Notes: generated by a model not told the origin, from the sequence alone. Shown: positions 9,338 to 26,112, counted from the first letter of the stretch. The stretch: 64,000 nucleotides of DNA from Elusimicrobiales bacterium (GCA_038204165.1 JBBRDG010000003.1:929-64928), one strand, 5' to 3'. Numbers and translations: made by a program.

Positions 9338-9445
9338 TAGGCGTTTTATCGCCCTTTAGCCCCGGTTCTTCCAGTCCAACTCCCTAATTAGTATAATTAT
9401 CTATATTAAGGGCCTGCATGCCCGACTATTTTTGCTGGAGGACCT

Positions 9446-10936
9446 ATGGGTAAATTTGTTGAATGCGTGCCGAATTTCAGCGAAGGGCGCGATGTCGCCA
9501 AGATAAACGCCATAGTGGACGCGGCCAGGTCCGTGCCCGGGGTGCTGGTGCTGGACGTTGAGAAAGACGCTGACCACAACCGCACCGTACTTACTTTCAT
9601 AGCCCCGGTGGAAACCGCCGCCGACGCGATGTTCGCCGTCGCCAAGAAAGCCTCCCAGCTTATAGACCTTAACCACCATAAAGGCGAGCATCCCCGCATG
9701 GGCGCCACCGACGTGGCTCCCTTCATCCCGGTAATGGAATCCACGATAGAGGACTGCATAAAGCTTGCCGAAAAGGCCGGTGAACGGATAGGCCGCGAGC
9801 TGAATATCCCGGTCTACCTCTATGACCGCGCCGCCAAGTTTGAACACCGCCGCGATCTGGCCAAGGTGAGAAAGGGCCAGTTCGAGGGCCTGCGGGAAGT
9901 TATCGGCACGGACCCCGAGCGCGTGCCGGATTTCGGGCCCAATCATATCCACCCCACCGCCGGCGCCATAGCCGTGGGCGCCCGCAACCAGATCGTAAAT
10001 TTTAATGTGAACCTGGCCACCACCGACATGGAGTTCGCCAAGGGCCTGGCCAAGAAAATACGTACCTCCGGCGGCGGGCTGCCTGCCCTGCGCGCCAAGG
10101 AGATCTTCCTGGAATCCAAGGGCCAGGTGCAAATGTCCACCGTGCTGACCGACTACCATACCACCAGCATAAAGCGCGTGATGGACGAACTGGCCAAGGA
10201 GCTGGCCCCGAAGAACATCGCCATTACCGGCACCGAGCTTATCGGCCTCACCACGCAGGACGCCATAACCGACTACGCGGTGGAGTCGCTTAAGGTGCAG
10301 GATTTCAAGAAGGAAGAGCAGGTGCTGGAGACTAAGCTGCTGAAACTGCTCAGTTCCTGGCAGGCCGCGGCCAACCTGTTTGTGGACGCGCTCGCCAATA
10401 CCGACCCCACCCCCGGCGGCGGCTCGGCGGGGGCGGTTAATGGCGCCATGGGTTGCGCGCTGGGCCAGATGGCCCTGGGCATCAGCCTGAGGAGCAAAAA
10501 ACTCGACGAGGCGAAGAAGCCCGCGCTGCGCGACCTGGCCGAGCGCCTGGGCGCCCATAAAGTGGCGCTGCAGAACTGCGTGGCCGAGGATTCCTCTTCT
10601 TTCGACGGCTTCATGGAAGCCATGAAACTGCCCAAGGATAACCCGGAACGCAAGGTGAAGATGCAGGCGGCCCTTAAGCACGCTGCCGAAGTTCCCCTGA
10701 AGACCGCCAGGCTGGCTTCCGAGGCGCTGGCCGGGCTGCAGGTCTGCGCCGCCCACATCTCGCCGCAGGTCGTGTCCGATTACCGCAGCGCCGGTTACCA
10801 GCTGGAGGCGGCCATACGCTGCGCGGCAGAGAACGTTTTTATTAACGCGGAAGGCCTTGAGGACAAGGCTTACGCGGAAAAGATCATAGCCGAGGTAAAG
10901 GGCTACCTGCCCTCTTCCGAAGCGGTAAAGGCATAA
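9446..10936 (+). CDS. ftcD: Bifunctional glutamate formimidoyltransferase / formimidoyl-THF cyclodeaminase
   Basis: 496 aa. The N-terminus MGKFVECVPNFSEGRD is diagnostic of formiminotransferases, and the C-terminal ~170-aa helical domain is cyclodeaminase-like. SD GGAGGA lies upstream. Confidence 0.88.
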   Translation: MGKFVECVPNFSEGRDVAKINAIVDAARSVPGVLVLDVEKDADHNRTVLTFIAPVETAADAMFAVAKKASQLIDLNHHKGEHPRMGATDVAPFIPVMESTIEDCIKLAEKAGERIGRELNIPVYLYDRAAKFEHRRDLAKVRKGQFEGLREVIGTDPERVPDFGPNHIHPTAGAIAVGARNQIVNFNVNLATTDMEFAKGLAKKIRTSGGGLPALRAKEIFLESKGQVQMSTVLTDYHTTSIKRVMDELAKELAPKNIAITGTELIGLTTQDAITDYAVESLKVQDFKKEEQVLETKLLKLLSSWQAAANLFVDALANTDPTPGGGSAGAVNGAMGCALGQMALGISLRSKKLDEAKKPALRDLAERLGAHKVALQNCVAEDSSSFDGFMEAMKLPKDNPERKVKMQAALKHAAEVPLKTARLASEALAGLQVCAAHISPQVVSDYRSAGYQLEAAIRCAAENVFINAEGLEDKAYAEKIIAEVKGYLPSSEAVKA

Positions 10937-10946: not shown

Positions 10947-12587
10947 ATGGCAAGCATCGACGCGATTTCACGTGGTTTAATGCTGGACAGTCTGAGGGAA
11001 TACGCCAAGCGGCGCATTCCGTTCGACCTGATCCGCGAGCTGGACGAGAAGAACGAGTTCCCGGCCGATATTCTTAAAGAGATGTACGACCCCGCGATTC
11101 TCGGCGTGCACCTGCTGATGATCCCGACCGAGTACGGCGGCGTTGCCGGCGGCAGCTTTGACATTTACAGGGTCTGCGAATTGCTGGCCCGGATAGACCT
11201 GGGGATAGCCACCGGCGTGTTCGCCACTTTCCTCGGCACCGACCCGCTCAATCAGGGGGGGACCGTGGAGCAGAAGGCCAAGTGGCTCACCCGTATAGCC
11301 AAAGAGAAGCTGCTGGTGGCCTACGGCGCCACCGAGGCCGACGCCGGCTCCGACCTGGTGAACCTACGCACCCGCGCCGAGCACGTGGTGAAGAACGGCA
11401 AGATCGTGGGCTACAATGTTACGGGCAACAAGCAGTGGATTTCCAACGGCGGCGTGGCCGACCTGTACACTATTCTCGCGCTGGCCCCCGGCGGCCCGTC
11501 CTGGTTCCTCGTGGAGAGGAATATGGAGGGCTTCTCACCCAACAAGCATGAGGACAAGCACGGCATAAGGCTTTCCAACACCGCCGGGCTGTCGCTCGAC
11601 AACGTTTACGTTCCCGCCGAGAACCTGATAGGTCTGGAAGAAGGCAAAGGCCTGCAGCAGGCCCAGGCCGTGTTCGGCTACACCCGCGTGATGGTGGCCG
11701 CTTTTGGCCTTGGCTGCGGTACCGAGGCGCTGGAACAGGCCGTGCGGTATAGTCAGCAGCGTATCCAGGGCGGCACCCCGCTTTCCGAAAAGCAGGGCTA
11801 TACCCACAAACTCATAGTGCCTAACGCCGTCAGGCTGGAGGCCTCACGCGCCTATATCGAGGAGACCGCCAACAGGCTGGACGCCGGCGACCACGGCCTG
11901 CAGACCGAGGGCGCCATTGCCAAGTATTCCGCTACCGAGGCCGGCAACAAGATGGCCGAGGACGCCATTCAGGCGCTGGGCGGCTACGGTTACACCAAGG
12001 ACTTTTCCGTAGAGAAGATAAAGCGCGACGTGAAAATCTGTCTAATTTACGAGGGGACCAGCGAGATCATGGAGATGACCATCTACCGCGGGCGCTGGCA
12101 GGAGCACCTTAAGAGCCGCGGCCGCTACTATCTGGAGCAGGCCGACAAACTGGACGAGCTGCACGCCAAGCAGCCCGGCACCGGGGCGCACGCCTCGGCG
12201 CTGGCCCTGCGCGCGCTCGGCGCCATCATGGAAGAGTGCCGCTTGCAGAAGCTGACCCGGCACCAGCATGTTACTTTTAAACTGGGCAAACTTATCGCCG
12301 CGGCTGAATGCGCCGCCTGCTTCTCCCGCGCCGCCGCGGCGGAAAGATACAGCGAAACCGTGCGTTTTGATAAGGCGGCCTGGCAGGCCATGGCCAGGAT
12401 TTTTGCCCGCGAAACCGCCCTCAGCGTCGCCACAGAAGGGCTGGCGCTGGTGCTCGGCGCCGCCGAGCAGGCCGGCAACCTGGCCGACGCTATGAACCTG
12501 GACGCGGTACAGGCCGAGCAGAAGGGCCTAGTTGCCGACATGGACCTCGTCGCGCTCAAGCTGAAACAGACGTTTAAGGCCAAGTGA
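10947..12587 (+). CDS. Acyl-CoA dehydrogenase with ~160-aa C-terminal extension
   Basis: 546 aa. ACAD core with catalytic-base motif IYEGTSEI (E369) and WISNGG. Residues ~386-546 are an extra Ala-rich helical domain. Confidence 0.85.
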   Translation: MASIDAISRGLMLDSLREYAKRRIPFDLIRELDEKNEFPADILKEMYDPAILGVHLLMIPTEYGGVAGGSFDIYRVCELLARIDLGIATGVFATFLGTDPLNQGGTVEQKAKWLTRIAKEKLLVAYGATEADAGSDLVNLRTRAEHVVKNGKIVGYNVTGNKQWISNGGVADLYTILALAPGGPSWFLVERNMEGFSPNKHEDKHGIRLSNTAGLSLDNVYVPAENLIGLEEGKGLQQAQAVFGYTRVMVAAFGLGCGTEALEQAVRYSQQRIQGGTPLSEKQGYTHKLIVPNAVRLEASRAYIEETANRLDAGDHGLQTEGAIAKYSATEAGNKMAEDAIQALGGYGYTKDFSVEKIKRDVKICLIYEGTSEIMEMTIYRGRWQEHLKSRGRYYLEQADKLDELHAKQPGTGAHASALALRALGAIMEECRLQKLTRHQHVTFKLGKLIAAAECAACFSRAAAAERYSETVRFDKAAWQAMARIFARETALSVATEGLALVLGAAEQAGNLADAMNLDAVQAEQKGLVADMDLVALKLKQTFKAK

Positions 12588-12603: not shown

Positions 12604-13395
12604 ATGAATATCGTAGTCCTTGTAAAACAGGTTCCTGACACCACCGAGGTGAAGATAAACCCCGAGACCGGAACGCTGATCCGCGCCGGGGTGCCCAGCA
12701 TCATCAACCCTTACGACCATTTCGCTCTGGATGCGGCGCTGGAACTCAAGAAAAAGCACGATTTCAAGGTGACCATACTCTCAATGGGCCCTCCGCAGGC
12801 CAAGAGCGTGGTGCAGCTGGCTCTGGCACTCGGCGCGGACGAAGGCGTGCTGCTTTCCGACATGGCGTTCGCCGGTTCGGATACCTGGGCTACCGCTTAT
12901 GCGCTGGCCAAGGCCATCAATAAAATCGGCAAGGCGGACATTATCTTTGCCGGCATGCAGGCTATCGACGGCGATACTGCCCAGACCGGCCCCGGCGTGG
13001 CCCAGCAGCTGGGTATGCCCCAGATCACTTTCTGCGAGCATGTGGACGTGGACGGGAAGCGTGTGATAGCCCGCAAGCAGATCGACGGCGGCTATGAAGT
13101 GCTGGAGGCCAGGCCCCCGGTGCTGATCACGATGGTGATGACCAAGGACTATACACCCAAGTACCCTTCCTTCATGGCCGTGCACGCTTCGCTCAACAAG
13201 CCGTTCCACGTGTGGAGCGCGGCCGACATCGGCGCCGAGGCGCAGTACCTGGGGCTCAAGGGCTCGCCCACCCAGGTGAGCAAGATCTACCCGCCTCCCC
13301 AAAGGGAGAAAGCCACCATGTTCGCAGGCTCAGGCCAGGAGAGCGCCGAAAAGATACTCGAGCTGATGCGCAAGGAGCATTTCTTAGGGGAGTAA
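12604..13395 (+). CDS. etfB: Electron transfer flavoprotein beta subunit
   Basis: 263 aa. MNIVVLVKQVPD N-terminus. The AIDGDTAQTGP motif is associated, from memory, with bifurcating (two-FAD) Etfs. Confidence 0.9.
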   Translation: MNIVVLVKQVPDTTEVKINPETGTLIRAGVPSIINPYDHFALDAALELKKKHDFKVTILSMGPPQAKSVVQLALALGADEGVLLSDMAFAGSDTWATAYALAKAINKIGKADIIFAGMQAIDGDTAQTGPGVAQQLGMPQITFCEHVDVDGKRVIARKQIDGGYEVLEARPPVLITMVMTKDYTPKYPSFMAVHASLNKPFHVWSAADIGAEAQYLGLKGSPTQVSKIYPPPQREKATMFAGSGQESAEKILELMRKEHFLGE

Positions 13396-13437: not shown

Positions 13438-14637
13438 ATGATAGAAGTTTCAAACAAGTGCATAGGCTGCAGCAAGTGCGTACCGGTCTGCCCTTTCGCC
13501 GCGATCAACATGATAGACAAGAAGGCCACCATGAACGAGGCCTGCACGCTCTGCGGCGTCTGCGTGCAGATCTGCCCGGTCAAGGCCATCACCATAACCC
13601 GCGAGGAAGCCTCAGCGCGGGATTTCTCCGGCTACAAGGGTGTTTGGGTTTACGTAGAACTTACCGAGACCGGCGACAAAACGCACCCGAAAAAGATAAA
13701 GCCCGTTACCTTCGAGCTGCTCTCAGAGGGGCGCAAACTGGCGGATGAACTTAAGGAAGACCTCTGCGCCGTGCTGCTGACGGATAAGAACCATAACTTC
13801 GAAAAAGAATTGGGCGCTTATGGCGCGGACAAGGTGTACATGGTAGAGCACGACGAGCTCTTTGAGTACAATACCGATATCTTTTCTACCGTGATCGTCT
13901 CCCTGGTGAACCGCCACAAGCCCTCCGCCATGCTTTATGGGGCCAGCATTCAGGGCCGTGACCTGGCCCCCCGGGTAGCTTCTACTTTGTACGTGGGCCT
14001 TACCGCCGACTGCACGGCGCTCGCTATTAAGGACGGTCTTATGCTGCAGTCCCGCCCGGCGTTCGGCGGCAATATCATGGCCGATATCCTCAGCCCCAAT
14101 TCCAGGCCTCAGCTGGCTACCGTGCGCCCCAATGTGATGAAACTGGCCGAGCCGGTGCACGGCCGCGCCGCGGTGGTGGTCCGCGAGGCCGCCAAACTCG
14201 ACAAGAGCCTGCGCCGCGTGAAAGTGCTGGAGCGCAAGATCGCCCGCGATTCCGGCGCGGTCAGGATAGAGAGCGCCGGCGTGATAGTTTCCGGCGGACG
14301 CGGCATGAAGACCAGGGATAAATTCAAGCAGCTGGAAGAACTCTCCGGGCTGCTGGGCGGCGTGGTGGGCGCTTCGCGCGCCGCGGTGGACCTGGGCTTC
14401 AAAGAAAAGACGCACCAGGTGGGCCAGAGCGGCACTACCGTGTCGCCCAAGCTGTACCTCTCTTTCGGCATTTCCGGCGCGGTGCAGCACGTAGTCGGCA
14501 TGAAAGCCTCCGACGTGATAATAGCCGTGAATAAGGATCCTAACGCGCCTATCTTCAACGTGGCCAAATACGGAATCGTCGGCGACGCGCATGAGATAGT
14601 GCCCAGGCTGATAGAGGCGCTGAAGAAGAATAAGTAG
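13438..14637 (+). CDS. etfA: Electron transfer flavoprotein alpha subunit with N-terminal 2x[4Fe-4S] ferredoxin domain
   Basis: 399 aa. CIGCSKCVPVCP and CTLCGVCVQICP motifs, then an EtfA core (GISGAVQHVVGM FAD motif). Confidence 0.9.
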   Translation: MIEVSNKCIGCSKCVPVCPFAAINMIDKKATMNEACTLCGVCVQICPVKAITITREEASARDFSGYKGVWVYVELTETGDKTHPKKIKPVTFELLSEGRKLADELKEDLCAVLLTDKNHNFEKELGAYGADKVYMVEHDELFEYNTDIFSTVIVSLVNRHKPSAMLYGASIQGRDLAPRVASTLYVGLTADCTALAIKDGLMLQSRPAFGGNIMADILSPNSRPQLATVRPNVMKLAEPVHGRAAVVVREAAKLDKSLRRVKVLERKIARDSGAVRIESAGVIVSGGRGMKTRDKFKQLEELSGLLGGVVGASRAAVDLGFKEKTHQVGQSGTTVSPKLYLSFGISGAVQHVVGMKASDVIIAVNKDPNAPIFNVAKYGIVGDAHEIVPRLIEALKKNK

Positions 14638-14698: not shown

Positions 14699-16726
14699 AT
14701 GACCTTACTGAACAGACTACTCCTTATCGTCTTCGGGGCCGGGCTTATACCCATCATCCCCGCGGGAGTATTTTTATTCTATTTTCAGTCCCGCGCCAAG
14801 AGCGACATCTCCAGCCTGCAGCGGAACGTCTCGCAGATGGGTTCGCTGATGATGGAGCGCGAAGCTCAGGACCTCTCCCGCCGCTTCGAGAGAATGTGGG
14901 ACACCGACGCGTCTTACGTTAACAACGCCGCTCTCGAAAAGGCGCTGAAGCGCAACCCGGAATTTTTATACCTCGCTTTCACCGGCCCTGACGGCCGCGC
15001 GGTACTCAGCGGCGGAGCGCCGGAACTTAAAAGGCGCTTTGGCTTCCTGGACCTGCGCGGTGAGCCGCTATTTCTCAAGGCTTCCAGGGACGGCCGCGCC
15101 GCTCTGGGCCATTTCGAAATGATTTACGACATGCCGGTGTGCAGGCTGGTGTATCCGGTCGGCGGCGGTTACTACGCCTTCGCCGCGGTAAACCTCCGCG
15201 ACCTGTTCGAGAAGCTGCGCGCGCAGCGCCTCGGGGCCACCGGCGGCCTGCTGCTTTCCGACGCCGAAGGCAACGCGCTCCCGCTTTCTGGCGCCTTCGA
15301 GAAGTTTGACGGCAACGCGGTGCGGGACATGCTCAATAACGGCCAGGTCTTTGAACTGGGGGGGAAGAAAGGCGAGTATATCGGGGTTGCCGCTAAAGTG
15401 CGCGGGTTCGACTTGTTCGTGGTGGCGCTTGAGGACAAGGCCGAGGCTTTCTCGGGGATCAACCGCATTACCTGGCTGATGGCTTTCTTTCTGCTGGCTT
15501 TCGCCACGGCTTTTTATTTCTCCGCGCTGCTGTTCACCCGCAGGCTGGGCGTGCCGGTGGACGCGCTGATGGGCGGCGCAGTACGGGTTTCCGGCGGCGA
15601 TTTCAAGACCACTGTCAGCGAGGAGACCGAGTTCGCGGAACTGTCGGCGCTGCTGCGTTCCTTCAACTCCATGATGAGAGAAGTAGACCGCTACCACGGG
15701 ATCCAGGTGGAAAAAGTTTTCGAGGAAAAGCAGAAACTGGAACTACTGGTCAGCCTGATCCACGACGCCATCATTCTTTGCGATTTTCGCGGCGAACTGC
15801 TTTACGCCAACGCCGCCGCCAGGGCCTTACTGGAGACGGAGAACGGGGCGCCGGGCGAAGAGAACGAACTTCTGCGCCGGCGCATAGCCGAGCTGGTGTA
15901 TAAAAAAGCTCTTTCGAAGGGCGGCGTGGTAGAGTTGCAGGTGTCCGGGGAGAAGAAATATTACCGGGCCAGCGTGCAGACCCTTTCGGCCAGGACCCAG
16001 AACCCTGCCATCTTCATGGTGCTGCGCGATATAACGCTGGAACGCAAGATGCAGCAGATGAAGGAGGAGTTCTTCCACTCCGTGGCGCACGACCTGCGCG
16101 CGCCGCTGCTGACCATGCAGGGCTATATCAAGCTGCTCGAGAAGGAATTCCAGCCGGAAGCCCGGCAGGCGGGTTATGTCCGGAACGTTAAGGATTCCAG
16201 CGACCGGCTTTTTAAACTACTGGAGAATATTCTGGATATTTCGCGCATGGAGGCCGGCCAGCTGAAGCCCGACCTGCGCAAGGTTAACGCGGCGGAGTTC
16301 CTGTCTTCCTGCGCGGAAGGGTTCCGGGTATTGTTCGAAGAAAAGAAGATAACTCTAGCCGTGGAAACTTCCGGCGCGGAGAAAATAGAATTTGAGGCTG
16401 ACTCCTCCCTGCTGCGCCGGGTTATGGAAAACCTGCTGTCCAACGCCTGGAAGTTTACGCCAGAGGGCGGCAGCGTAACGGCCTCGGTCAAGGCAGATAA
16501 AGACGGGCTGGTCTTCTCGGTGGCCGATACCGGCCCCGGAGTCCAGACCGGGCAGCTGGAAGCGGTTTTCGAGAAGTACAAGCGGCTTAAGGACGGCGAG
16601 GGCGAGACAGGCTTCGGCCTGGGCCTGCCCATCGCCCGCAAGATAGTGGAGCTGCACGGCGGGAAGATCTGGGCGGAAGCCGCGCCCGGGGGGATGTTCA
16701 AGTTTACGGTGAATAGAGGGGTTTAA
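14699..16726 (+). CDS. Membrane sensor histidine kinase (periplasmic sensor, HAMP, HisKA, HATPase)
   Basis: H-box FFHSVAHDLRAPL, N-box LLSNAWKFT, G-boxes DTGPG and GFGLGLPIARKIVELHGG. Two TM helices flank a ~250-aa extracytoplasmic domain. The ORF opens at 14657, but ATG 14699 (MTLLNRLLL) precedes the first TM helix. Confidence 0.85.
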   Translation: MTLLNRLLLIVFGAGLIPIIPAGVFLFYFQSRAKSDISSLQRNVSQMGSLMMEREAQDLSRRFERMWDTDASYVNNAALEKALKRNPEFLYLAFTGPDGRAVLSGGAPELKRRFGFLDLRGEPLFLKASRDGRAALGHFEMIYDMPVCRLVYPVGGGYYAFAAVNLRDLFEKLRAQRLGATGGLLLSDAEGNALPLSGAFEKFDGNAVRDMLNNGQVFELGGKKGEYIGVAAKVRGFDLFVVALEDKAEAFSGINRITWLMAFFLLAFATAFYFSALLFTRRLGVPVDALMGGAVRVSGGDFKTTVSEETEFAELSALLRSFNSMMREVDRYHGIQVEKVFEEKQKLELLVSLIHDAIILCDFRGELLYANAAARALLETENGAPGEENELLRRRIAELVYKKALSKGGVVELQVSGEKKYYRASVQTLSARTQNPAIFMVLRDITLERKMQQMKEEFFHSVAHDLRAPLLTMQGYIKLLEKEFQPEARQAGYVRNVKDSSDRLFKLLENILDISRMEAGQLKPDLRKVNAAEFLSSCAEGFRVLFEEKKITLAVETSGAEKIEFEADSSLLRRVMENLLSNAWKFTPEGGSVTASVKADKDGLVFSVADTGPGVQTGQLEAVFEKYKRLKDGEGETGFGLGLPIARKIVELHGGKIWAEAAPGGMFKFTVNRGV

Positions 16727-16728
16727 AA

Positions 16729-18906
16729 ATGAGCAAAGAAAATAAAAAAACCAAAAAAAAATCGCTTTATATTATCGCCGCTATTTTTTCGGTAGTGTGG
16801 GTGTTCCTGGTGCAGTTGCCGGAGATTACAAAATCTTTCGACGATAAATGGAGCGATGCGCGCCTTATCCTTCCAATGTACCTTTCCGTCCCGTTCACCG
16901 CGGACGGCAATTATGCTTTTGCCTTCGGTAAGTATATAAACAAGCCGGCCGACCCGAGGATTACGGTAACAGCCATAGATGATTACACCGTCGATAAGTA
17001 TGGCTACCCTTTTAAGCGCAAATATTACGGCCAGCTTATTGAGAAACTAAAAGGCCTGGGCGTTAAAGCCATAGGAATGGATGTAATGTTCTTCGAGTCC
17101 GACAAGGATGAGCCTGCCAGTGACGCCAGGTTCCTTGCTGCTTCCGAAAAAGCCGGGATAGTTGTGAACCTGCTGGCCATAGAAAAAGACCGAATGACCA
17201 TTAAGAAACCCATGAAAGGAGTGGGGACGGCCAGCGCGTACATGGCTTATCCTAATTCCGACATTAGCCTTGACGGGGACGGGCATGCGCGCAAATTCTA
17301 TCTTTTCTTCCCGGGGCGGGATAATGATTTGGACGGGTTCGAGGACCAGCAGCTGCTTTACAAGAACCTGGAACTGGGCCGGCTAAAATGCAGCCCGTTG
17401 TGCGACGAGGTGAAGCTGGCGTCCCTGGGAATGGCTACCTACGCTGTTTATACCGGAAAGCCTCTTTTGGATTATGAACGGCTCTACAGTGAGAACCCGA
17501 TGACGCTGAACTACCGCTACCCTGTTTATAGAAAGGCGCATCCCGGTTGGGATAAAAATGCGCAGAACAGGACTGAATCCACGTTCCGGCATGTCTCTGT
17601 GGCAGATATCCTTGAAAACAGGCTTAGCCAGGAAGAAAAGGACAGCCTGAAAGGCGGTATGACACTGATTGGTTCCACGGCGCTGGGGGCATATGATCAT
17701 TTTCCCTCGCCTTTCTCCGCGCTTTTGCCCGGAGTAGAGATCCACGCGACCTGCATAGATAATCTTCTGCTTAAGGACTCGTTGCGCAGCGTTAGCGGCG
17801 GCTACCTTGCTCTGCTGATGCTTATCTTGCCCTGGATCCCGGTTTTCCTGAACCGGTACCCGCTCAACACCATGGTGGCGGTTTCCTCCGGGATAATGTT
17901 TTTAATGCTCGTGCTTGACTACGTCTTCCTCTGCAACCTTTATTCTGTCCCATTCATCTCAGTGGCCCTTTCTTTTCTGATCCCTTCCGTTTATGTAGCG
18001 GTCGACAAAGGGCTGTTGGAGGGCCGCGAGAAAAAGTGGATTAAGAACACTTTCGGCCAGTACCTGTCGCCCAAGGTGGTGGAGATCATTACTAAGGACC
18101 CGTCCAAGCTGTCGTTGGGCGGGGAAAAGCGCGACATGACGGCCATGTTCTGCGATATCGCCGGTTTCACCACCATCTCTGAACAGCTGACCCCCGAGCA
18201 GTTGACCGCGATGCTGAATACCTACCTGTCCGGGCTCACCGACGTAATCCTCCAGCAAGACGGTGTGGTGGACAAGTTTATCGGCGACTGTATTATGGCG
18301 TTCTGGAACGCGCCGTTGGACCTGAAGAACCACCGGACCAGCGCCCTGCTCGCCGCTGTGGACTGCCTGGCGGTTAACAATAAACTCAATGAACTGGGCA
18401 CGGACATGGTCGTAAAACCCTGTTTTCGCATAGGCCTTAACTCCGGGCCTATGACCGTCGGTAACATGGGATCTAAGAACCGCTTTTCTTACACGGTAAT
18501 CGGCGATGCCGTGAACCTGGCCTCGCGGCTGGAGGGCGCCAATAAATTCTTCCATTCGCGCATCATGGCCAGCGAAGATGTCTTTAACGAAGGCAAGGAC
18601 CAGTTAGAGGCGCGTTATTTGGGCCAGATCCGTGTGGTCGGCAAGGCTATTCCGGTGAAGGTCTATGAGCCCCTGACCCGCAAAGGCGGGGCTTCTCCGG
18701 AGATAATGAAGATGCTCCAACGCTATGGCGCGGGGGTGGAGAATTTCTCCGCAGGCAAATATATGGAATCTGCCAAGGATTTCAAGGCCGCGCTGGAGGC
18801 GAATCCTGGCGACGGTCCCTCGCAGTTCTACCTTGAGCTGGCGGAACAGTACAACAGGGAGATTCCAAAGGACTGGGACGGGGCGTTCAACCTGACCTCG
18901 AAATAA
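16729..18906 (+). CDS. CHASE2-domain class III adenylate/guanylate cyclase
   Basis: 725 aa. N-terminal TM helix, a large extracytoplasmic domain and a TM bundle, then the cyclase catalytic core (MFCDIAGFTTISE, GDCIMAFWNAP, VIGDAVNLASRLEG) and a C-terminal TPR-like tail. Confidence 0.85.
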   Translation: MSKENKKTKKKSLYIIAAIFSVVWVFLVQLPEITKSFDDKWSDARLILPMYLSVPFTADGNYAFAFGKYINKPADPRITVTAIDDYTVDKYGYPFKRKYYGQLIEKLKGLGVKAIGMDVMFFESDKDEPASDARFLAASEKAGIVVNLLAIEKDRMTIKKPMKGVGTASAYMAYPNSDISLDGDGHARKFYLFFPGRDNDLDGFEDQQLLYKNLELGRLKCSPLCDEVKLASLGMATYAVYTGKPLLDYERLYSENPMTLNYRYPVYRKAHPGWDKNAQNRTESTFRHVSVADILENRLSQEEKDSLKGGMTLIGSTALGAYDHFPSPFSALLPGVEIHATCIDNLLLKDSLRSVSGGYLALLMLILPWIPVFLNRYPLNTMVAVSSGIMFLMLVLDYVFLCNLYSVPFISVALSFLIPSVYVAVDKGLLEGREKKWIKNTFGQYLSPKVVEIITKDPSKLSLGGEKRDMTAMFCDIAGFTTISEQLTPEQLTAMLNTYLSGLTDVILQQDGVVDKFIGDCIMAFWNAPLDLKNHRTSALLAAVDCLAVNNKLNELGTDMVVKPCFRIGLNSGPMTVGNMGSKNRFSYTVIGDAVNLASRLEGANKFFHSRIMASEDVFNEGKDQLEARYLGQIRVVGKAIPVKVYEPLTRKGGASPEIMKMLQRYGAGVENFSAGKYMESAKDFKAALEANPGDGPSQFYLELAEQYNREIPKDWDGAFNLTSK

Positions 18907-18907
18907 C

Positions 18908-19621
18908 ATGATAATATTCTGGCGCCTCCTTCTCGCTCACCTGCTTTCGGACTTCACGCTACAGTTCGATGTAATCAACCGCATGAAGCGGGAGCATGTA
19001 TGGGGGATGTTGCTGCACTGCCTTACCCATTACGTGGTGTCGGCGGTCTTTACCTGGCCGTACCTGGGGCAGGTCTGGGTGCAGATAGGTCCGGCGGGAG
19101 TTACCGGCTGGTGGGCGCTGGCGCTGATGTTCGTGCTGCACTTCGTAGTGGACGAACTGCGTATTTACAGCATGAAGACCATGGGGTTCCGCGACGGGAC
19201 CGTCAGCTTCCTGGTGGACCAGTTCCTGCATTTCTACGTGCTGTTCATGATCGCGCCGATAGTAATCCCGGACCGGAATTTCCTGCTGGCGGAAAAATGG
19301 ACGGGCATAGCCGCCATGCTGGTGCTGGTCACCCATTTCACCACCGTACTGGTCTACTTCATCGAAAAGGACCTTTTCGGCAAGACCTTCCCCCATTTCG
19401 ACGAGAAGTATTTTCTTATCTTTGAGCGCGTGGTGCTCTGGGCTTTTTTTCTGACCGCGGGCTACTGGTGGATACTTTTTGCGGCGGCCTGGATCTACCA
19501 GATCTTCTATGTCAGGCACAAACGCGTCATAGATATGTCTCTGCTTAACGTGGTACTGAGCGTCGGGCTCACTGTCACGTTCGGTTTGTGGACGCGCTTT
19601 ATGTATTACGGTCATTTATAG
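18908..19621 (+). CDS. DUF3307-family polytopic membrane protein
   Basis: 237 aa, 6-7 TM helices. N-terminal LLAHLLSDFTLQ motif and several conserved-looking His/Asp. Begins 1 nt after the cyclase stop. Confidence 0.6.
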   Translation: MIIFWRLLLAHLLSDFTLQFDVINRMKREHVWGMLLHCLTHYVVSAVFTWPYLGQVWVQIGPAGVTGWWALALMFVLHFVVDELRIYSMKTMGFRDGTVSFLVDQFLHFYVLFMIAPIVIPDRNFLLAEKWTGIAAMLVLVTHFTTVLVYFIEKDLFGKTFPHFDEKYFLIFERVVLWAFFLTAGYWWILFAAAWIYQIFYVRHKRVIDMSLLNVVLSVGLTVTFGLWTRFMYYGHL

Positions 19622-19645
19622 CACGGTCGGGCTTTAAGGCATCAA

Positions 19646-20230
19646 ATGGGACAGACAGAGACTCTCAGGATAGAAGACGCGGTGTTTACCTTTATTGACG
19701 TGGAGACCACGGGGCTTTCCCCCAGGGCGGCGCGCGTCTGCGAAGTTGCCGCGGTAAGCTTCCGCGGCGAAGAGCGCGTGGGGACGCTGGCTGAACTTAT
19801 AAATCCCGGCCAGCCGATACCGGCTGAAGTCTCGAAGATTCACGGCATCACCGACGGGATGGTGAAGGACAGCCCCTCGTTCGACGCGGTGGCTCCCGGG
19901 CTGCTGGCTATCCTGGAAGGCGCCGTCATTGTGGCGCATAACGCCGAGTTCGACATCGGCTTCCTGTCGGCGGAGTTCGAGCGCGTGGGCTTGAAGTTTC
20001 CGTCGCTCCCCGTGGTGGACACGCTGGCGCTGGCCCGCAAGCACTGGAAGTTCAAGAGCAACAGGCTGGGCAGCATAGCGGCCGAACTGAATTTTTCTAA
20101 CGAGGGCTGGCATCGCGCGCTGAGCGACGTGGAGATGACCAGAAAGATCTTCGTGCATTTCATCACCGCCTTCCGGGCTGCCGGCGCGGTGACGGTTGCC
20201 GACCTAATCAAGAAAAGCGGAGGAAAATAA
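19646..20230 (+). CDS. DEDDh 3'-5' exonuclease (DnaQ/epsilon-like, stand-alone)
   Basis: 194 aa. ExoI FIDVETTGL, ExoII VAHNAEFDIGFL, ExoIII HRALSDVEMT. The stop overlaps the hutH start (TAATG). Confidence 0.85.
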   Translation: MGQTETLRIEDAVFTFIDVETTGLSPRAARVCEVAAVSFRGEERVGTLAELINPGQPIPAEVSKIHGITDGMVKDSPSFDAVAPGLLAILEGAVIVAHNAEFDIGFLSAEFERVGLKFPSLPVVDTLALARKHWKFKSNRLGSIAAELNFSNEGWHRALSDVEMTRKIFVHFITAFRAAGAVTVADLIKKSGGK

Positions 20231-21750
20231 TGAAGAATAAACCTTTTACCCTGGGCATGGCCCCGGACATCGTGGATTTCGCGGAAGTCGCGCACGGCTT
20301 CAGGAAAGTCGTGGTCCCTCCGAAGGCGCTTAAGCTGATAGAGTCCCGCAGGGCGCTGCTAGAGGGCATGCTCGCCGAGGACAAGGTGATGTACGGCATC
20401 AATACCGGCTTCGGCGAACTGGCCAGCCAGCGCGTTTCGCGCGAGAGCCTGAAAAGCCTGCAGGTGAACCTGATCCGCAGCCATGCCTGCGGCGTGGGCG
20501 CTCCCTTGGACGACGCGGAAGCCACGGCGCTGATGTTCGCCCGTGTGAACGAACTCGCGATGGGTAACTCCGGAGTAAGGCCCGTGCTGGTGAAAAGGCT
20601 CGCCGAACTGATAAACAAGAACGTAATACCTTTTATTCCTTCCAAGGGTTCCGTGGGCGCCAGCGGCGACCTGGCACCTTCCGCCCACATGGCGCTGGTG
20701 CTGATAGGCGAAGGTTTGGCCAAGTTCGCCGGTGAGCGCGACTGGCAGCCGGCCGAAACGGTGCTGAAAAAAGCCAAAATCAAGCCCATCGAACTTGCTG
20801 AAAAAGAGGGCCTGGCCCTGATCAACGGCACGCAGGCCATGAAGGCCGTAGGCGGGCTCGCGTTGTTCGAGGCGCTGAACCTGTTCTACTCCGCCGTGCT
20901 TACAGGCGCGATGAGCATGGAGGCCCTGAAGGGCACCCCGGTGGCCTTCGATCCCCGCATCCATGCGCTTAAGCCCCATGCCGGCCAGCTCGAGGTGGCC
21001 GAGATGCTGGAGGCCGTGCTCAAAGGCAGCAAGATCCGGGCGTCCCATTCCGCCAACGACAAACGCGTGCAGGACCCGTATTCCCTGCGCTGTATGCCGC
21101 AGGCCATGGGCGCCGCGCGCGACGCTATCGAGTACGCGCTGAACGTATTTGAGACCGAGTTCGGCAGCGTGACCGACAACCCCCTGGTGGTAGAGGGGAA
21201 GACCCGCGGCACCATAGACGTGCTTTCTGGCGGAAACTTCCACGGCCAGGCCGTCTCTTTCGCCTCCGACTTCGCGGCTATCGCTGTGACCTCGCTGGGC
21301 AATATCTCCGAGCGCCGCATAGCCCAGCTGGTCAGCGACTTCAAGATCCTGCCGCCCTTTCTGGCCCGCAACCCCGGCCTGGAATCCGGCTTCATGATCG
21401 CGCACGTCACCGCGGCCGCGCTCTGCAACGAGAACAAGATCCTGAGCCATCCCGCGAGCTGCGATTCCATCTCCACCTCCGCCAACAAGGAGGACTTCGT
21501 CAGCATGGGGATGAACGCCGCGCTCAAGTTCAAGACCGTAGTGAGGAACGTGGCCTGTATAATCGCCATAGAGATGATGGCGGCGGCGGAAGGCGTGGAA
21601 TTCCACCGCCCGCTGAAGTCCAGCGCCAGGATGGAAGCCGTCCTGGCCAAGCTGCGCGAGATCTCTCCCGCTTTCAAAGGCGACGAGGTATTCTCTGGCC
21701 GCATCGAGGCGGTGGCGGACGCCATCATGAGCGGCTACTTCGTGGACTAG
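20230..21750 (+). CDS. hutH: Histidine ammonia-lyase
   Basis: 506 aa with the MIO-forming [14 protein letters not shown] motif. Confidence 0.93.
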
Positions 21751-21763: not shown

Positions 21764-23431
21764 TTGAAAATGAACCATAAGAACATACGCGCGGCGCGCG
21801 GCAATAAACTTTCGTGCAAGGGCTGGCAGCAGGAAGCGGCCCTGCGCATGCTGATGAACAATCTGGACCCCGAGGTGGCGGAACGCCCCGAGGAGCTGGT
21901 GGTTTACGGCGGGCGCGGCAAAGCGGCCCGTAATTGGGACTGCTACGATGAGATAGTTAATTCCCTCAGAAAGCTCGAGAACGACGAGACGCTGCTGGTG
22001 CAGTCCGGCAAGGCCGTCGGCATACTTAGAACGCACGAGTACTCCCCGCGCGTGATCATCGCAAATTCTAACCTGGTCGGCAACTGGGCCAACTGGGAGG
22101 TCTTCGACGAGCTGGAGAAGAAAGGCCTGATGATGTATGGTCAGATGACGGCCGGCTCGTGGATCTACATCGGCACTCAGGGCATCCTGCAAGGCACTTA
22201 CGAGACTTTCGCGGAATGCGCCCGCAAACATTTCAGGGGCGGCGATCTGTCTGGCAAGCTGACGGTAACCGGCGGGCTCGGCGGCATGAGCGGCGCCCAG
22301 CCGCTGGCCGTTACGATGAACGGCGGCGTGGCCATCGTGGTGGAAGCCGACGAGAGCCGCATCCAGATGCGCCTGAAGACCCGCTACGTGGACGTGATGA
22401 CCAGCAGCCTGGACGAAGCCCTTACCCTGGCCGGCAAGGCCATGAAGGCCAAACAGCCGCTTTCTATAGCGCTGCACGGCAACTGCGCCGAAGTGCTGCC
22501 GGAGCTGGTCCGGCGCGGCGTCAAGGTGGACGTGCTTACCGACCAGACCTCGGCCCACGACCCGCTCCGCGGCTACATCCCCAGGGGCTACACTATTAAG
22601 GCGGCCGACGAGCTGCGCCGCAGAGACCCCAAAAAGTACGTGCGGTTGGCGATGGAATCCATCGCGATCCACGTGGAGGCCATGCTGAAGCTGCAGAAGG
22701 CCGGCGCCGCCACTTTTGACTACGGCAATAATATCCGTACGATGGCCTTCAAGCAGGGCGTTAAGCACGCTTACGATTTCCCCGGCTTCGTGCCGGCCTA
22801 CATCCGCCCGTTGTTCTGCACCGGCAAGGGGCCGTTCCGCTGGGCCGCGCTATCCGGGGACCCCAAAGATATAGCCGTGACCGACGCGGCGATAAAGGAA
22901 ATGTTCCCCCGGGACGCCCACCTGAACCGTTGGCTGGACCTGGCCGCCAAAAAGGTGGCTTTCCAGGGCCTGCCGTCCAGGATCTGCTGGCTCGGTTACG
23001 GCGAGCGGCACCTGGCGGGACTGCGCTTTAACGACCTGGTTAAAAAGGGGAAGATATCGGCGCCAATTGTGATAGGCCGCGACCACCTGGATTCCGGCTC
23101 CGTGGCAAGCCCTTTCCGCGAGACCGAGTCCATGAAGGACGGCTCCGACGCTATAGCCGACTGGCCTATTCTTAATGCCCTGATTAACACGGCCTCGGGC
23201 GCCAGCTGGGTGTCTTTCCACCACGGCGGCGGGGTGGGCATGGGCTACTCGCTGCACGCCGGGCAGGTGACCGTGGCCGACGGCACCAAAGAGATGGCGC
23301 GGCGGCTGGAGCGCGTGCTGACCAACGATCCGGCCATGGGCGTACTGCGGCACGCGGACGCCGGCTATAAGATAGCTAAGGATTTCGCCAGGAAGACCGG
23401 GGTGAAGATCCCGATGCTGGGTAAAAAATAG
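21764..23431 (+). CDS. hutU: Urocanate hydratase
   Basis: 555 aa. The N-terminus [32 protein letters not shown] and the length are typical of HutU. Confidence 0.93.
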
Positions 23432-23453: not shown

Positions 23454-23951
23454 ATGGCTTCAGAATTCAGCTTCGACGTGGTTTCCAAGGTGGAGTATAC
23501 CGTGGTGGACGAGGCTATCGCCATCGCCATGAAAGAAGTGATCAACCGCTACGACTTCAAGGATTCCAAATCCGAGATCAACTTCGACAAGAAGGCTAAC
23601 ACCATCATGCTGCAGTCTTCCGACGATTACAAGGTGAAGGCTCTCAACGAAGTGTTGATGATGAAGATCTCGAAGCGCGGCCTTCCGGTTAAGAATTTCA
23701 CCGGAGAGAAAGTGCAGAGCGCGCTTGGCGGGACGGCCAAAATGGTCGTAAAGGTGCAGCAGGGCATTCCGCAGGAGAAGGCCAAGGAGATAAGCAGGGC
23801 CATCAAGGATCAGAAACTGAAGGCCAACACCTCTATTCAGGGCGACACGCTGCGTGTTACTTCCAAGTCGAAGGACGAGCTGCAGAACGTGATGACGCTG
23901 CTCCGCGGCGGCGATTACGGCATTACGCTGCAGTTCGAGAACTTCAGATAG
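23454..23951 (+). CDS. yajQ: YajQ-family nucleotide / cyclic-di-GMP-binding protein (UPF0234)
   Basis: 165 aa. The N-terminus SFDVVSKV...EVDNA-like and the tandem ferredoxin-like repeats are typical of YajQ. Confidence 0.8.
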   Translation: MASEFSFDVVSKVEYTVVDEAIAIAMKEVINRYDFKDSKSEINFDKKANTIMLQSSDDYKVKALNEVLMMKISKRGLPVKNFTGEKVQSALGGTAKMVVKVQQGIPQEKAKEISRAIKDQKLKANTSIQGDTLRVTSKSKDELQNVMTLLRGGDYGITLQFENFR

Positions 23952-23976: not shown

Positions 23977-25227
23977 ATGGCGATATTGTTTACCAACATA
24001 AAGCAGCTGCTTACTTTCTCCGGCGAAGCGGGCCCCCGCGCCGGCGCGGCCATGCGCGAGATCGGGCTGGTCAGGAACGCCGCGGTGCTGGTGAACGACG
24101 GGATCATAGAAGCCGCGGGGCCCAGGGCTTCCGTAGCGCGCCATCCTTTGGCAAAGAAAGCCAGGACGGTGGAGGTGAACGGGGTCTGCCTGCCGGGTTT
24201 TGTGGACAGCCATACCCACGCGGTCTTTGCCGAGCCGCGCCTTAAGGATTTTTCGATGCGCACCGCCGGCGCCTCCTACCAGGAGATCAAGGCCGCGGGC
24301 GGGGGAATAATCTCCAGCATCGGCGCGGTGCGGGCCCAGGGCCAGAAAACCATGGCGGCTCAGCTGGCCGCGCGGGCAGTCCGCTTCCTCGAATGCGGCA
24401 CGACCACCGCGGAGGTGAAGAGCGGTTACGGGCTTAGCCTGGAGTCGGAACTGAAGATGCTCCGGGCCGTGCGCGACGCCCGGGGCTTTACTCCGTTGGA
24501 AATGATCCCCACCCTGCTGGCCGCCCACAGCGTGCCTCCTGAATTTAAAGGCGACGCGCAGGCCTACCTGGATTATGTTACCGCCGAGATCCTGCCAAAG
24601 GTTGCGGCTGAAAAGCTGGCCGTCTTCGCCGATATCTTCTGCGAGAAAGGCTACTTCACTCCCGAACAGACTACGGCTTATCTGAAAGAGGCCGCCCGCC
24701 TGGGTCTGAAGCCCAAGGTGCATTCCGAGCAGCTTTCCAATTACGGCGGTACCCGGGCCGGCGCGGCAGCGGGCGCCGTCAGCGCCGACCACGCCGACCA
24801 CGTTTTCGCCGAGGATATCGCCGCCATGCGCGACTCCGGGACTATCGCCACGCTGCTGCCGGCCTCAAATTATTATCTGGGACTGACCAAGTACCCGCCC
24901 GCGCGGGAGCTCATCGCCTCGGGCGTGCCCGTAGCGCTGGCCACCGACTTTAACCCCGGCACCTGCCCCTGCTGGAACATGCAGTTCGTGCTTTCTGTAG
25001 CCTGCACCCATTGCGGCATGACACCCGAGGAGGCCATCTGCGCCGCCACGGTGAACGGCGCCTGCGCGCTAGCCATAGGCGACAAGGTGGGCCGCGTGGT
25101 TCCCGGCATGCAGGCCGACCTGGCCTTTTTCGCCGCCGACGATTACCGGGAGCTGGCCTACTATTTCGGCGCCAGCCAGACCTTGCTGACGGTGAAAAAA
25201 GGGCATATCGTTCACCCGATTTTTTAG
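23977..25227 (+). CDS. hutI: Imidazolonepropionase
   Basis: 416 aa. Amidohydrolase with GFVDSHTHAVF and the EVKSGYGL motif typical of HutI. Confidence 0.9.
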   Translation: MAILFTNIKQLLTFSGEAGPRAGAAMREIGLVRNAAVLVNDGIIEAAGPRASVARHPLAKKARTVEVNGVCLPGFVDSHTHAVFAEPRLKDFSMRTAGASYQEIKAAGGGIISSIGAVRAQGQKTMAAQLAARAVRFLECGTTTAEVKSGYGLSLESELKMLRAVRDARGFTPLEMIPTLLAAHSVPPEFKGDAQAYLDYVTAEILPKVAAEKLAVFADIFCEKGYFTPEQTTAYLKEAARLGLKPKVHSEQLSNYGGTRAGAAAGAVSADHADHVFAEDIAAMRDSGTIATLLPASNYYLGLTKYPPARELIASGVPVALATDFNPGTCPCWNMQFVLSVACTHCGMTPEEAICAATVNGACALAIGDKVGRVVPGMQADLAFFAADDYRELAYYFGASQTLLTVKKGHIVHPIF

Positions 25228-25239: not shown

Positions 25240-26112
25240 ATGAAAATAATACTTTTTGACATAGACGGCACTCTGGTTAAAGCAGGCGGGGCCGGAGTGC
25301 GCGCGCTGAATCACGCCGTGCGGGCGATGACGGGCCATCCTAAAGCCTGCGACACGGTGGAGATTCAGGGCGCCACCGACAAAGCCAACTTCGCGAACGC
25401 CTTTAAGGTGGGGAAAGGCCGTCAGCCCGGCAAGAAAGAACTGGCGGAGCTTACGGCTAAGTACGTGGCGCGCCTGCCGGCTGAGTTGGAAGCCTCGTTA
25501 AAGGAAAAAAAATATTTAAAGGTGAAAGGTGTAGAGAAATTCCTCGAAAAACTTTCCGGCCTTCCCGGGGTCATGCTAGGCCTGGGCACCGGTAATCTGA
25601 AGGAGGGCGCCTTTATAAAACTGGGACCCTCCGGCCTGCTGAAGTATTTCGCGTTTGGCGGCTACGGCTGCGATTCGCACCACCGGAGCGAAGTGCTGCA
25701 GAAGGCGGTGCAGCGCGCCGCGAAACTGGCGAAGGCCGGAATTAAGCCGGGAGAGGTTTATGTGATAGGCGACACGCACCGCGACGTGGAAGCGGCCAAA
25801 GAAGCCGGCTATCATTCCGGCGCGGTTATGGACGGGTACGGCGAGCCGCGGGCCCTGATGCGCTCCAACCCCGAGCTGATGGCGAAGGATTTTTCCGATC
25901 TGAAACCGTGGTTCATCTGGCTGGGGCTTAAGGCGGACCCGCGCGGGATCAGCCGCGGCACTTATATCTGCCCAGACTCGCCGATAGAGCACGCCCATTA
26001 CGGCAGGACCGGCATGGACCTGAACGATATAGAGATTGGTATTCAGCGCCTGCGCGCCGAAAAGAACAAGATAACCGGCGGGAAGCGCCTGTCACCCAGG
26101 AAAAATAAATGA
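25240..26112 (+). CDS. HAD-superfamily hydrolase with C-terminal extension
   Basis: Motif I LFDIDGTLV, motif IV GDTHRDVEAAKEAG, plus ~80 extra C-terminal residues. Confidence 0.75.
   Translation: MKIILFDIDGTLVKAGGAGVRALNHAVRAMTGHPKACDTVEIQGATDKANFANAFKVGKGRQPGKKELAELTAKYVARLPAELEASLKEKKYLKVKGVEKFLEKLSGLPGVMLGLGTGNLKEGAFIKLGPSGLLKYFAFGGYGCDSHHRSEVLQKAVQRAAKLAKAGIKPGEVYVIGDTHRDVEAAKEAGYHSGAVMDGYGEPRALMRSNPELMAKDFSDLKPWFIWLGLKADPRGISRGTYICPDSPIEHAHYGRTGMDLNDIEIGIQRLRAEKNKITGGKRLSPRKNK

Follow-up and report, generated by a model that had tools for sequence, protein, structure and literature searches.

The window analysed here is a stretch of 64,000 nucleotides (nt) from an Elusimicrobiales bacterium (GCA_038204165.1 JBBRDG010000003.1:929-64928). 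Positions 14,699 to 20,230 encode, between etfA and hutH, a histidine kinase, a predicted CHASE2 receptor adenylate cyclase, a DUF3307 membrane protein and a DEDDh exonuclease. The original prediction, made from the sequence alone, regarded these as a single four-gene unit inserted between etfA and hutH, which might couple an extracellular cue to nucleotide signalling or turnover, or to control of histidine or purine catabolism. The gene structure that it described was confirmed by the sequence and by Pfam: the open reading frames (ORFs) of all four genes, with the domains assigned to them, lie on the + strand at the coordinates it gave, co-directional and packed as in an operon. The stop-to-start distances were 2 nt between kinase and cyclase, 1 nt between cyclase and DUF3307, and 24 nt between DUF3307 and exonuclease, and the exonuclease stop overlaps the hutH ATG in the sequence TAATG at 20228-20232. 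The idea of a single inserted unit did not hold. Because the presence and absence patterns across about 100 loci separate the four genes, we found three modules and not one unit, so that nothing was inserted as a block between etfA and hutH.

The genes of the operon, all on the + strand, are listed here with the matches that identify them; clade I is the clade of the window, as defined below.

9446..10936, +, FTCD (formiminotransferase-cyclodeaminase), the first operon gene in clade I; Pfam FTCD_N, FTCD and FTCD_C; upstream position kept in clade I
10947..12587, +, acyl-CoA dehydrogenase (ACAD), 546 amino acids (aa); Pfam Acyl-CoA_dh_N, _M and _1
12604..13395, +, etfB, electron-transfer flavoprotein beta; Pfam ETF
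13438..14637, +, etfA, the alpha subunit, with an N-terminal 2x[4Fe-4S] ferredoxin domain; Pfam Fer4 families, ETF and ETF_alpha
14699..16726, +, orphan sensor histidine kinase, 675 aa; Pfam dCache_1 (weak), HAMP, PAS_8, HisKA and HATPase_c
16729..18906, +, predicted CHASE2 receptor adenylate cyclase, class IIIb; Pfam CHASE2 and Guanylate_cyc
18908..19621, +, DUF3307 membrane protein, long 237-aa form; Pfam PF11750 on residues 3-118
19646..20230, +, stand-alone DnaQ/PolC-type DEDDh 3'-5' exonuclease, 194 aa; Pfam RNase_T
20230..21750, +, hutH, histidine ammonia-lyase; Pfam Lyase_aromatic, E 1e-178
21764..23431, +, hutU, urocanase; Pfam Urocanase_N, Urocanase and Urocanase_C
23454..23951, +, YajQ-family nucleotide-binding protein, between hutU and hutI; Pfam DUF520
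23977..25227, +, hutI, imidazolonepropionase-like amidohydrolase; Pfam Amidohydro_1 and Amidohydro_3; place after yajQ conserved
25240-26112, +, HAD hydrolase, a distal operon gene; identified by Pfam; conserved in clade I
26109-27107, +, double-SIS protein, a distal operon gene; identified by Pfam; conserved in clade I

The set of hut pathway families is complete, with Lyase_aromatic, Urocanase, Amidohydro_1 and FTCD all in the operon. A simple scan for internal terminators between 9.4 and 27.1 kb gave none that was convincing. The closest NCBIfam models for the ACAD were acryloyl-CoA reductase and cyclohexane-1-carbonyl-CoA dehydrogenase, both of which scored under their cut-offs.

Linkage of the four genes in related loci

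The comparison set comprised about 100 related Elusimicrobia loci, which are labelled individually (L001 etc.). A scan of one genome per GTDB species supplied 80 of them, exact-protein look-ups added 14 more, and a metagenome scan gave 2 that were relevant. When the exonuclease alignment was used in the metagenome scan, the matches listed (600 stretches) included at least two Elusimicrobia loci, and the rest were mostly generic DnaQ-like genes of other organisms. Loci were annotated by blastp of their ORFs against the window proteins and against a thiolase, a HEAT protein and a giant protein from distant loci. Clades I and II were taken from a neighbour-joining tree of DUF3307; 75 species-level loci had enough upstream DNA to be assessed, 16 in clade I and 59 in clade II.

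DUF3307 and the exonuclease each had hundreds of close homologues, 59-93% identical, and the named ones were from Elusimicrobia metagenome-assembled genomes. A profile search of 1.84 billion cluster representatives returned only 523 DUF3307-related clusters, mostly full-length (~235 aa). Distant DUF3307 relatives with names also belonged to Elusimicrobiota (e.g. Avelusimicrobium and Parelusimicrobium), as did every named member of the long DUF3307 subfamily.

The order FTCD-ACAD-etfBA-kinase-cyclase-DUF3307-exonuclease-(hutH)-hutU-yajQ-hutI-HAD-SIS was repeated in relatives with DUF3307 proteins 59-79% identical to that of the window, and the order ACAD-etfBA-kinase-cyclase-DUF3307-exonuclease-hutH/hutU was found in clade I at DUF3307 identities down to 40%. 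Because the four-gene order recurred in 15/15 to 16/16 species-level genomes of this clade, the arrangement is more than chance, and the linkage on which the original prediction was built is kept in other genomes throughout the window's clade.

The kinase was seen only with the ACAD-etf genes upstream, in 15/15 clade I loci and in L092 and L174. No kinase was found adjoining the cyclase in clade II, though the cyclase was present, and in L174 the kinase still stood beside etfA despite loss of the cyclase. The kinase co-varies with the ACAD-etf block, occurring whenever that block lies upstream, and not with the cyclase.

The cyclase gene was immediately 5' of DUF3307 in 69/75 species-level loci (16/16 in clade I and 53/59 in clade II). 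In clade I the cyclase stop and the DUF3307 start were a median of 8 nt apart; the clade II median was 1 nt, and overlaps of 1-4 nt were frequent. The junction fell between -4 and +12 nt in 58/69 adjacent pairs, and a gap of 12 nt or less was found in 48/53 of those from clade II. The gene 5' of the cyclase was the kinase in 15/15 clade I loci and a HEAT-repeat protein in 28/41 clade II loci; in L087, L089 and L090, which are of clade II type, it was DsbD, itself preceded by sucCD. The gene 3' of DUF3307 was the exonuclease in 15/16 clade I loci, and in clade II (n=54) it was thiolase in 44, hutH in 4 and hutU in 2. The cyclase and DUF3307 form a near-constant and apparently translationally coupled pair, apparently a widely conserved signalling core. 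The succession of cyclase and DUF3307 followed by hut genes is a widespread arrangement, and its position within the conserved hut operon was fixed across ~70 species-level genomes.

Two features of the clade II loci are recorded in addition. In many of these genomes, e.g. in L009 (2-7930), the HEAT-repeat protein (~360 aa) overlaps the cyclase by 4 nt, and a giant ORF of ~2250 aa, to which no function was assigned, precedes it.

The exonuclease followed a third pattern. In 27/27 loci with downstream sequence the next gene was hutH or hutU, and exonuclease homologues seeded from clade II locus L046 gave nine further contexts, all with hutH-hutU-yajQ directly next. Thiolase separates DUF3307 from the exonuclease in L046, L048, L089 and L090. 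Two of the nine contexts have neither cyclase nor DUF3307: L088, where an SF1 helicase, the exonuclease and hutH follow one another, and L091, where a REC domain and a 263-aa protein precede the exonuclease and hutH. Across these lineages the exonuclease has diverged to 45-50% identity, and its upstream gene may be DUF3307, thiolase, the helicase or the 263-aa protein. The exonuclease is tied to hutH and not to the signalling genes. The check proposed in the original prediction, by co-occurrence of DUF3307 with CHASE2 cyclases and DEDDh nucleases, supported a link with the cyclase and did not support one with the exonuclease.

Variation within the hut block was also noted. In L003, L005, L062, L073 and L077 of clade I, hutH is missing from its usual place and the exonuclease is followed by hutU; in L005 the opposite strand carries, ~6 kb downstream, an aromatic ammonia-lyase paralogue of 37% identity. 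The order in L088 (4794-16585) is HEAT protein, SF1 helicase, exonuclease, hutH, hutU and yajQ. In L174 (6094-9591), where the cyclase is lost, the kinase is followed by a divergent DUF3307, the exonuclease and hutH.

Predicted properties of the encoded proteins

The cyclase matched CHASE2 (PF05226) over residues 74-357 with 113.4 bits against a cut-off of 26.3 (E 1.7e-32) and Guanylate_cyc (PF00211) with 67.7 bits against 21.9 (E 1.3e-18); NCBIfam gave nothing for the cyclase or for DUF3307. The predicted topology is a transmembrane (TM) segment, a periplasmic CHASE2 domain, three TM segments, the cyclase domain and a tail of ~85 aa, with TM segments at residues 12-30, 355-373, 383-401 and 407-425. 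The CHASE2 domain is thus flanked by one TM segment on its N-terminal side and by three clustered on its C-terminal side, as expected of a CHASE2 receptor. The closest solved cyclase domain was that of Pseudomonas aeruginosa CyaB (3r5g, E 1.7e-33, ~185 residues aligned). When aligned to 3r5g, the metal residues D476/D520, the substrate residues K516/T589 and the transition-state residues N596/R600 were kept in 71-72 of 72 orthologues. Because the metal Asp, Lys/Thr and Asn/Arg pairs are conserved and CyaB is closest, the residue set is, as judged from the alignment, that of an active adenylate cyclase of class IIIb. The protein is accordingly classed from its sequence with the class IIIb and CHASE2 receptor cyclases, and cyclic AMP (cAMP) is its predicted product.

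CyaB shares with this cyclase the catalytic domain and all three residue pairs. The sensor of CyaB is a membrane sensor domain, whereas the CHASE2 domain here is periplasmic, and the gene here, unlike that of CyaB, sits in a hut operon and is paired with a DUF3307 gene. The CHASE2 cyclases of Sinorhizobium meliloti, which make cAMP upon an external cue and act on a cAMP-dependent regulator, have the same CHASE2-then-class III cyclase architecture; their description contains no DUF3307 pairing or catabolic-operon placement, unlike the situation here (PMC13001267).

The sensor and TM half of the cyclase is the fastest-evolving part of the operon. Across 16850-18020, which covers CHASE2 and the TM part, the GC content is ~0.52, whereas the flanks have 0.60-0.63. 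In the CHASE2 domain L001 shares only 46% identity with the window, compared with 79-92% in the neighbouring genes, whereas L080 and L072 share 68-69% although their other genes place them further off. Because CHASE2 identity is discordant with that of the neighbours, these values suggest that a sensor cassette was exchanged, or that the clade has two sensor types. In L088 yajQ is followed by a CHASE2-Ser/Thr protein kinase, a PP2C phosphatase and an FHA protein, so that a CHASE2 sensor with another output domain is linked to the hut block there.

The window contains a second predicted class IIIb adenylate cyclase at 38441-39967 (TM, HAMP and cyclase domain; FCDIRNF, KFMGD, YTFIGDTVNIASR). It begins 8 nt after a CitMHS transporter gene and is in-line with MobA-like, XdhC, ThiF and xanthine-dehydrogenase genes (36595-45270). 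A second nitrogen-heterocycle catabolic operon in the window therefore also has its own membrane cyclase beside a polytopic membrane protein. This parallel favours the view that catabolic operons can hold local sensor cyclases of their own.

The cyclase domain also matched PADLOC PycC models (best E 2.8e-30), the exonuclease matched PDC-S48 and Cas-associated DEDDh models, and a membrane-protein gene stands directly 3' of the cyclase, just as in Pycsar a class III cyclase fold is followed by a membrane-protein gene. Taken together these matches could describe an anti-phage defence of the Pycsar/CBASS type, with the cyclase, a transmembrane effector and a nuclease effector. However, the PycC matches span only the shared class III fold, the Lys/Thr pair is of the class IIIb adenylate type with CyaB as the closest solved relative, and DUF3307 has neither a cyclic-nucleotide-binding domain nor a PADLOC match. 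In addition, a periplasmic CHASE2 sensor is typical of environmental receptors, and the genes lie in a core-metabolic operon conserved across the phylum, not in a variable island. With no effector that binds a cyclic nucleoside monophosphate (cNMP), adenylate-type specificity residues and a conserved core operon, we rejected Pycsar-type defence, which we consider extremely improbable.

DUF3307 matched PF11750 with 47.4 bits against a cut-off of 23 (E 2.5e-12) on residues 3-118, so that residues ~120-237 are outside the Pfam model; 41/44 diverse DUF3307 relatives also matched. Among 26 orthologues, which are 59-88% identical, 65 columns were invariant. The invariant residues include conserved His and Asp residues in helices 1-5: H11/D15, H37/H41, H78/D82, D104/H108 and H143. 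An AlphaFold model made with 126 sequences was an 8-helix bundle (pLDDT 95.6, pTM 0.90). From the loop charges we infer an N-out topology with eight TM helices and with the His/Asp residues toward the cytoplasmic half of the membrane.

Searches for relatives of known function gave little. A fold search of the PDB with the pLDDT 95.6 model gave nothing significant (best E 0.65, TM score 0.26); the top matches, terpene synthase and GPCR folds (TM score ≤ 0.28), were treated as noise, and the search with an earlier, shallow model (pLDDT 74) was empty. A sequence search against solved structures gave no DUF3307 match even at E ≤ 10, and no secondary Pfam family recurred among the 44 diverse relatives at E ≤ 5. 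A full-text search of the literature on DUF3307 found essentially none beyond one passing mention.

A derived DUF3307 subclade (L068, L069, L071, L085 and L086) has neither cyclase nor hut genes near. It includes Ca. Obscuribacterium magneticum. DUF3307 lies at ~10001-10700 in these loci, except in L071 (~2316-2990). The gene after DUF3307 in L069 encodes a PMT_2/GT-C-like membrane glycosyltransferase. Because this glycosyltransferase adjoins DUF3307 in a cyclase-free subclade, there is a hint that DUF3307 proteins can act in an envelope or lipid context.

The conserved operon core has no recognised transporter, and DUF3307 is its only polytopic membrane protein that is not a sensor. Small secondary transporters bind ions or substrates at intramembrane sites of the His/Asp type, and DUF3307 has conserved HxxxD, HxxxH and DxxxH motifs within predicted helices 1-5. 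The CitMHS transporter followed by the HAMP-cyclase provides an analogous pair elsewhere in the window. DUF3307 might therefore be the missing permease for histidine/urocanate or a metal, with the cyclase alongside as a membrane protein of the same regulon that is either independent or monitors flux. We think this doubtful. The model had no fold likeness to solved transporters (best TM score 0.26), no Pfam transporter family was matched at E ≤ 5 by the 44 members, L174 has two EamA transporters between yajQ and hutI besides its DUF3307, and L087, L088, L091 and L093 retain hutHU without DUF3307.

The kinase is taken to start at ATG 14699 (an alternative GTG is at 14657); the resulting 675-aa form agrees with the NCBI gene call for the L001 orthologue. 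Its layout is TM, a periplasmic dCache-like domain, TM, HAMP, PAS, HisKA and HATPase_c, with TM segments at residues 7-25 and 260-278. HisKA (PF00512) scored 56.7 bits and HATPase_c (PF02518) 86.2 bits, and the translation shows both the H-box 'SVAHDLRAP' and the G boxes. The original prediction that no response regulator adjoins it was correct: the kinase is an orphan, and neither a response regulator nor a cNMP-binding domain was found in the ~45 large ORFs scanned in the window. A second orphan histidine kinase (PAS, HisKA, HATPase_c) is encoded on the - strand at 62220-63326, with no adjoining response regulator.

The exonuclease matched RNase_T/DEDDh at E 7.9e-36 and TIGR00573 (dnaq) with 105 bits against a cut-off of 71.5. 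Its closest solved relative was the PolC-type exonuclease of Thermotoga maritima (2p1j, E 9e-30). The residues of Exo I (D18/E20, 'IDVETTG'), Exo II (D103, 'HNAEFD') and Exo III (H156/D161, 'WHRALSD') were invariant in 19 orthologues. Judged by these residues, the enzyme is predicted to be catalytically intact and like the epsilon subunit of DNA polymerase III. It shares the DEDDh fold, intact Exo I-III motifs and a similar size (186-194 aa) with 2p1j and with the N-terminal domain of Escherichia coli DnaQ (1j53/2gui). Unlike E. coli epsilon it has no C-terminal polymerase-binding tail: it ends at residue 194, ~20 residues past Exo III, with no alpha-binding extension or clamp motif, and it fell short of the epsilon equivalogs (TIGR01406, 102 against 222.7; PRK05711, 103.6 against 196). 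It therefore falls outside epsilon proper. It differs from the stand-alone DnaQ/PolC enzymes in being apparently translationally coupled to hutH, with hutH or hutU next in every Elusimicrobia locus examined. The exonuclease is most likely a DNA-type housekeeping enzyme carried in the operon; a role specific to hut is possible but unsupported.

In Bacillus subtilis a small non-catabolic gene likewise lies directly 5' of hutH, in the operon hutP-hutHUIGM, where HutP is an RNA-binding antiterminator co-transcribed with hutH (PMC2425495). The DEDDh exonuclease has no similarity to HutP, and the likeness is positional only.

The YajQ protein passed the NCBIfam equivalog NF003819 with 182.6 bits against a cut-off of 146, and its gene accompanied hutU in 37/42 loci that extended far enough, also where the cyclase was absent. 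It belongs to the same equivalog family as the c-di-GMP effectors of the XC_3703 type (PMC4199771, PMC6988422). YajQ-family proteins bind nucleotides, and XC_3703 binds c-di-GMP with no detectable binding of cAMP or cGMP (PMC4199771). The window gene differs from those of XC_3703-type effectors in its position between hutU and hutI, and no LysR-type partner gene was seen among the scanned ORFs of the window. With XC_3703 showing no cAMP binding and yajQ following hutU where the cyclase is lacking, YajQ was downgraded as a candidate cAMP receptor, and the proposal that it reads out the cyclase is not supported.

These results bear on the proposal of one four-gene signalling and turnover unit, in which kinase and cyclase would sense and make a cNMP, DUF3307 (as a hydrolase), the exonuclease or both would degrade it, and YajQ would read it. 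The tight spacing and the constant order throughout clade I fit such a unit, as does the binding of nucleotides by the YajQ family (PMC4199771), and the many His and Asp residues of DUF3307 might, in principle, hold catalytic metals. Oligoribonuclease and RNase T are themselves members of the DEDDh superfamily. However, the exonuclease matched DnaQ/PolC proofreading domains and not oligoribonuclease (Orn): no Orn chain in the PDB was matched at E ≤ 0.001, RNase T was matched only weakly (~1e-7 to 1e-8), and no Orn model was among the best 25 of 29 NCBIfam matches. To our knowledge cAMP is not a substrate class of 3'-5' exonucleases. The presence and absence of the genes splits them into the three modules, and YajQ and the exonuclease persist in cyclase-free loci. 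With XC_3703 not detectably binding cAMP or cGMP (PMC4199771), we consider a single unit very unlikely, and the suggested part of the exonuclease in nucleotide turnover is not supported by its nearest relatives.

Operon leader, neighbouring genes and known hut regulators

A leader of 229 nt (9217-9445) precedes FTCD. It has a near-consensus promoter-like sequence, TTGACA-17 nt-TATACT, at 9221-9249, followed by a strong, terminator-like hairpin at 9305-9331 (an 11-bp stem and a T run) and, beyond it, a TATAAT box at ~9392. The hairpin region could be a small RNA or an attenuator. Rfam found only tRNA in the window, and the operon leader gave sub-threshold noise alone.

Past the operon, at 29131-35488, are genes for a dihydropyrimidine-dehydrogenase-like protein (852 aa, - strand) and two amidohydrolases. 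These neighbours recur in L005 and in one further relative locus. The wider region is thus given over to nitrogen-heterocycle catabolism.

Regulation of hut in enteric bacteria is by CAP-cAMP. HutP (PMC2425495) and HutC (PMC12977541) are also known hut regulators. None of these known types of regulator is encoded at the locus. A tblastn search of the window and L001-L093 found no CRP-like receptor, within the limited sensitivity of a single E. coli CRP query.

Proposed signalling within the histidine operon

The reading we prefer, with a probability of about 0.5, is that three separately inherited modules meet in an old histidine-fermentation operon widespread in Elusimicrobiota, and that the cyclase and DUF3307 pair tunes this operon through cAMP. 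The first module would be FTCD-ACAD-etfB-etfA with the dCache/HAMP/PAS histidine kinase, which appears only in the window's clade and would have been joined upstream there, or lost elsewhere. The second would be the CHASE2 class IIIb adenylate cyclase with the 8-helix DUF3307, and the third the DnaQ-type DEDDh exonuclease with hutH, hutU, yajQ, hutI and the HAD hydrolase. This reading starts from direct results: the arrangement of the genes, the three linkage patterns, and a catalytic competence that is read from the sequence.

How the pair would work can be proposed more tentatively, at somewhat less than even odds. The cyclase and DUF3307 would act jointly at the membrane: the periplasmic CHASE2 domain would sense an external cue, and the intact cyclase domain would make cAMP at the membrane. 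DUF3307 would be the membrane partner of the cyclase, most likely a co-sensor linked to a small solute or metal that it would bind or transport at its intramembrane His/Asp site. The cAMP would be read by a receptor encoded elsewhere, which would adjust expression or flux of the pathway from histidine through glutamate to acyl-CoA. In the window's clade the kinase may add a second input, sensed independently and passed on to a response regulator encoded elsewhere, and the exonuclease may be a mere housekeeping gene in the operon. The control of histidine catabolism suggested in the original prediction is thus plausible, with cyclase and DUF3307 standing before hut genes across much of the phylum.

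Several observations weigh against a joint function of the pair. DUF3307 occurs without the cyclase in L055, L068, L069, L071, L085, L086 and L174, and the cyclase without DUF3307 in L087 and L093. The cyclase TM region of L001 is 29% identical to that of the window while its DUF3307 is 79% identical, and in L080 and L072 the corresponding values are 52-55% and 67-70%. Because the TM/CHASE2 half of the cyclase is discordant with DUF3307, tight helix-to-helix co-evolution between them is disfavoured. No cyclase-DUF3307 fusion was found among the best 150 representatives, whose lengths were 60-295 aa; two apparent fusions, in L024 and L031, arose as artefacts where GC-rich DNA leaves long frames open. 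No cAMP receptor was found among the ORFs scanned in the window. The tie between DUF3307 and the cyclase comes from gene comparison, and since all loci are from one phylum, part of the conservation is shared ancestry. Counted in favour of the pairing was L174, in which the DUF3307 left over after loss of the cyclase (P0260) is strongly divergent, with H11 changed to Tyr and no Pfam match on record.

Alternatively, the genes would be unrelated passengers in a long, stable, highly expressed catabolic operon and adjacent by inheritance or compaction, the exonuclease being a housekeeping enzyme and DUF3307 an unrelated envelope or membrane enzyme. The restriction to a single phylum, the loss of each gene from the locus alone, and the failure of the cyclase sensor half and DUF3307 to co-vary all favour this explanation. 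So do the generic DnaQ/PolC family of the exonuclease, whose 31-47% identical relatives in other organisms (78 metagenome loci listed) had no window operon genes alongside, and the DUF3307 subclade that lies beside a membrane glycosyltransferase with neither cyclase nor hut genes. Against it, the tight cyclase-DUF3307 junction was kept in 58/69 pairs while the genes on either side were replaced, and the junction of exonuclease with hutH or hutU was kept in 27/27 loci across lineages in which the exonuclease has fallen to 45-50% identity and the upstream gene varies. Junctions that are kept selectively while their surroundings are rearranged usually point to functional coupling. We therefore regard synteny without coupling as unlikely, at roughly one chance in four.

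A bolder proposal is a private regulatory apparatus of Elusimicrobiota within the histidine-fermentation operon, in which the CHASE2 cyclase and an 8-helix DUF3307 subunit, its fold as yet unsolved, would form a two-protein membrane receptor, with DUF3307 binding or transporting the cue, and the exonuclease and YajQ, as binders of nucleic acid or nucleotides on either side of hutHU, would act on hut expression at the RNA or nucleotide level. We consider this improbable. If true, it would give a first function for DUF3307 and a regulatory role for a DEDDh exonuclease in amino-acid catabolism.

A new kind of system is not indicated, the genes being of known families and operon inertia possibly explaining part of the conservation. 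The locus represents a catabolic operon into which a second-messenger sensor is built together with a membrane partner that is uncharacterised. Two conserved linkages remain unexplained, that of the CHASE2 cyclase with DUF3307 and that of the DnaQ-like exonuclease with hutH, the latter in a phylum of which few members are in culture. Little is understood of the signals and partners of CHASE2 domains, for which a conserved accessory membrane protein would be a useful lead, and for DUF3307 the near-constant pairing with a cyclase is the first testable functional context.

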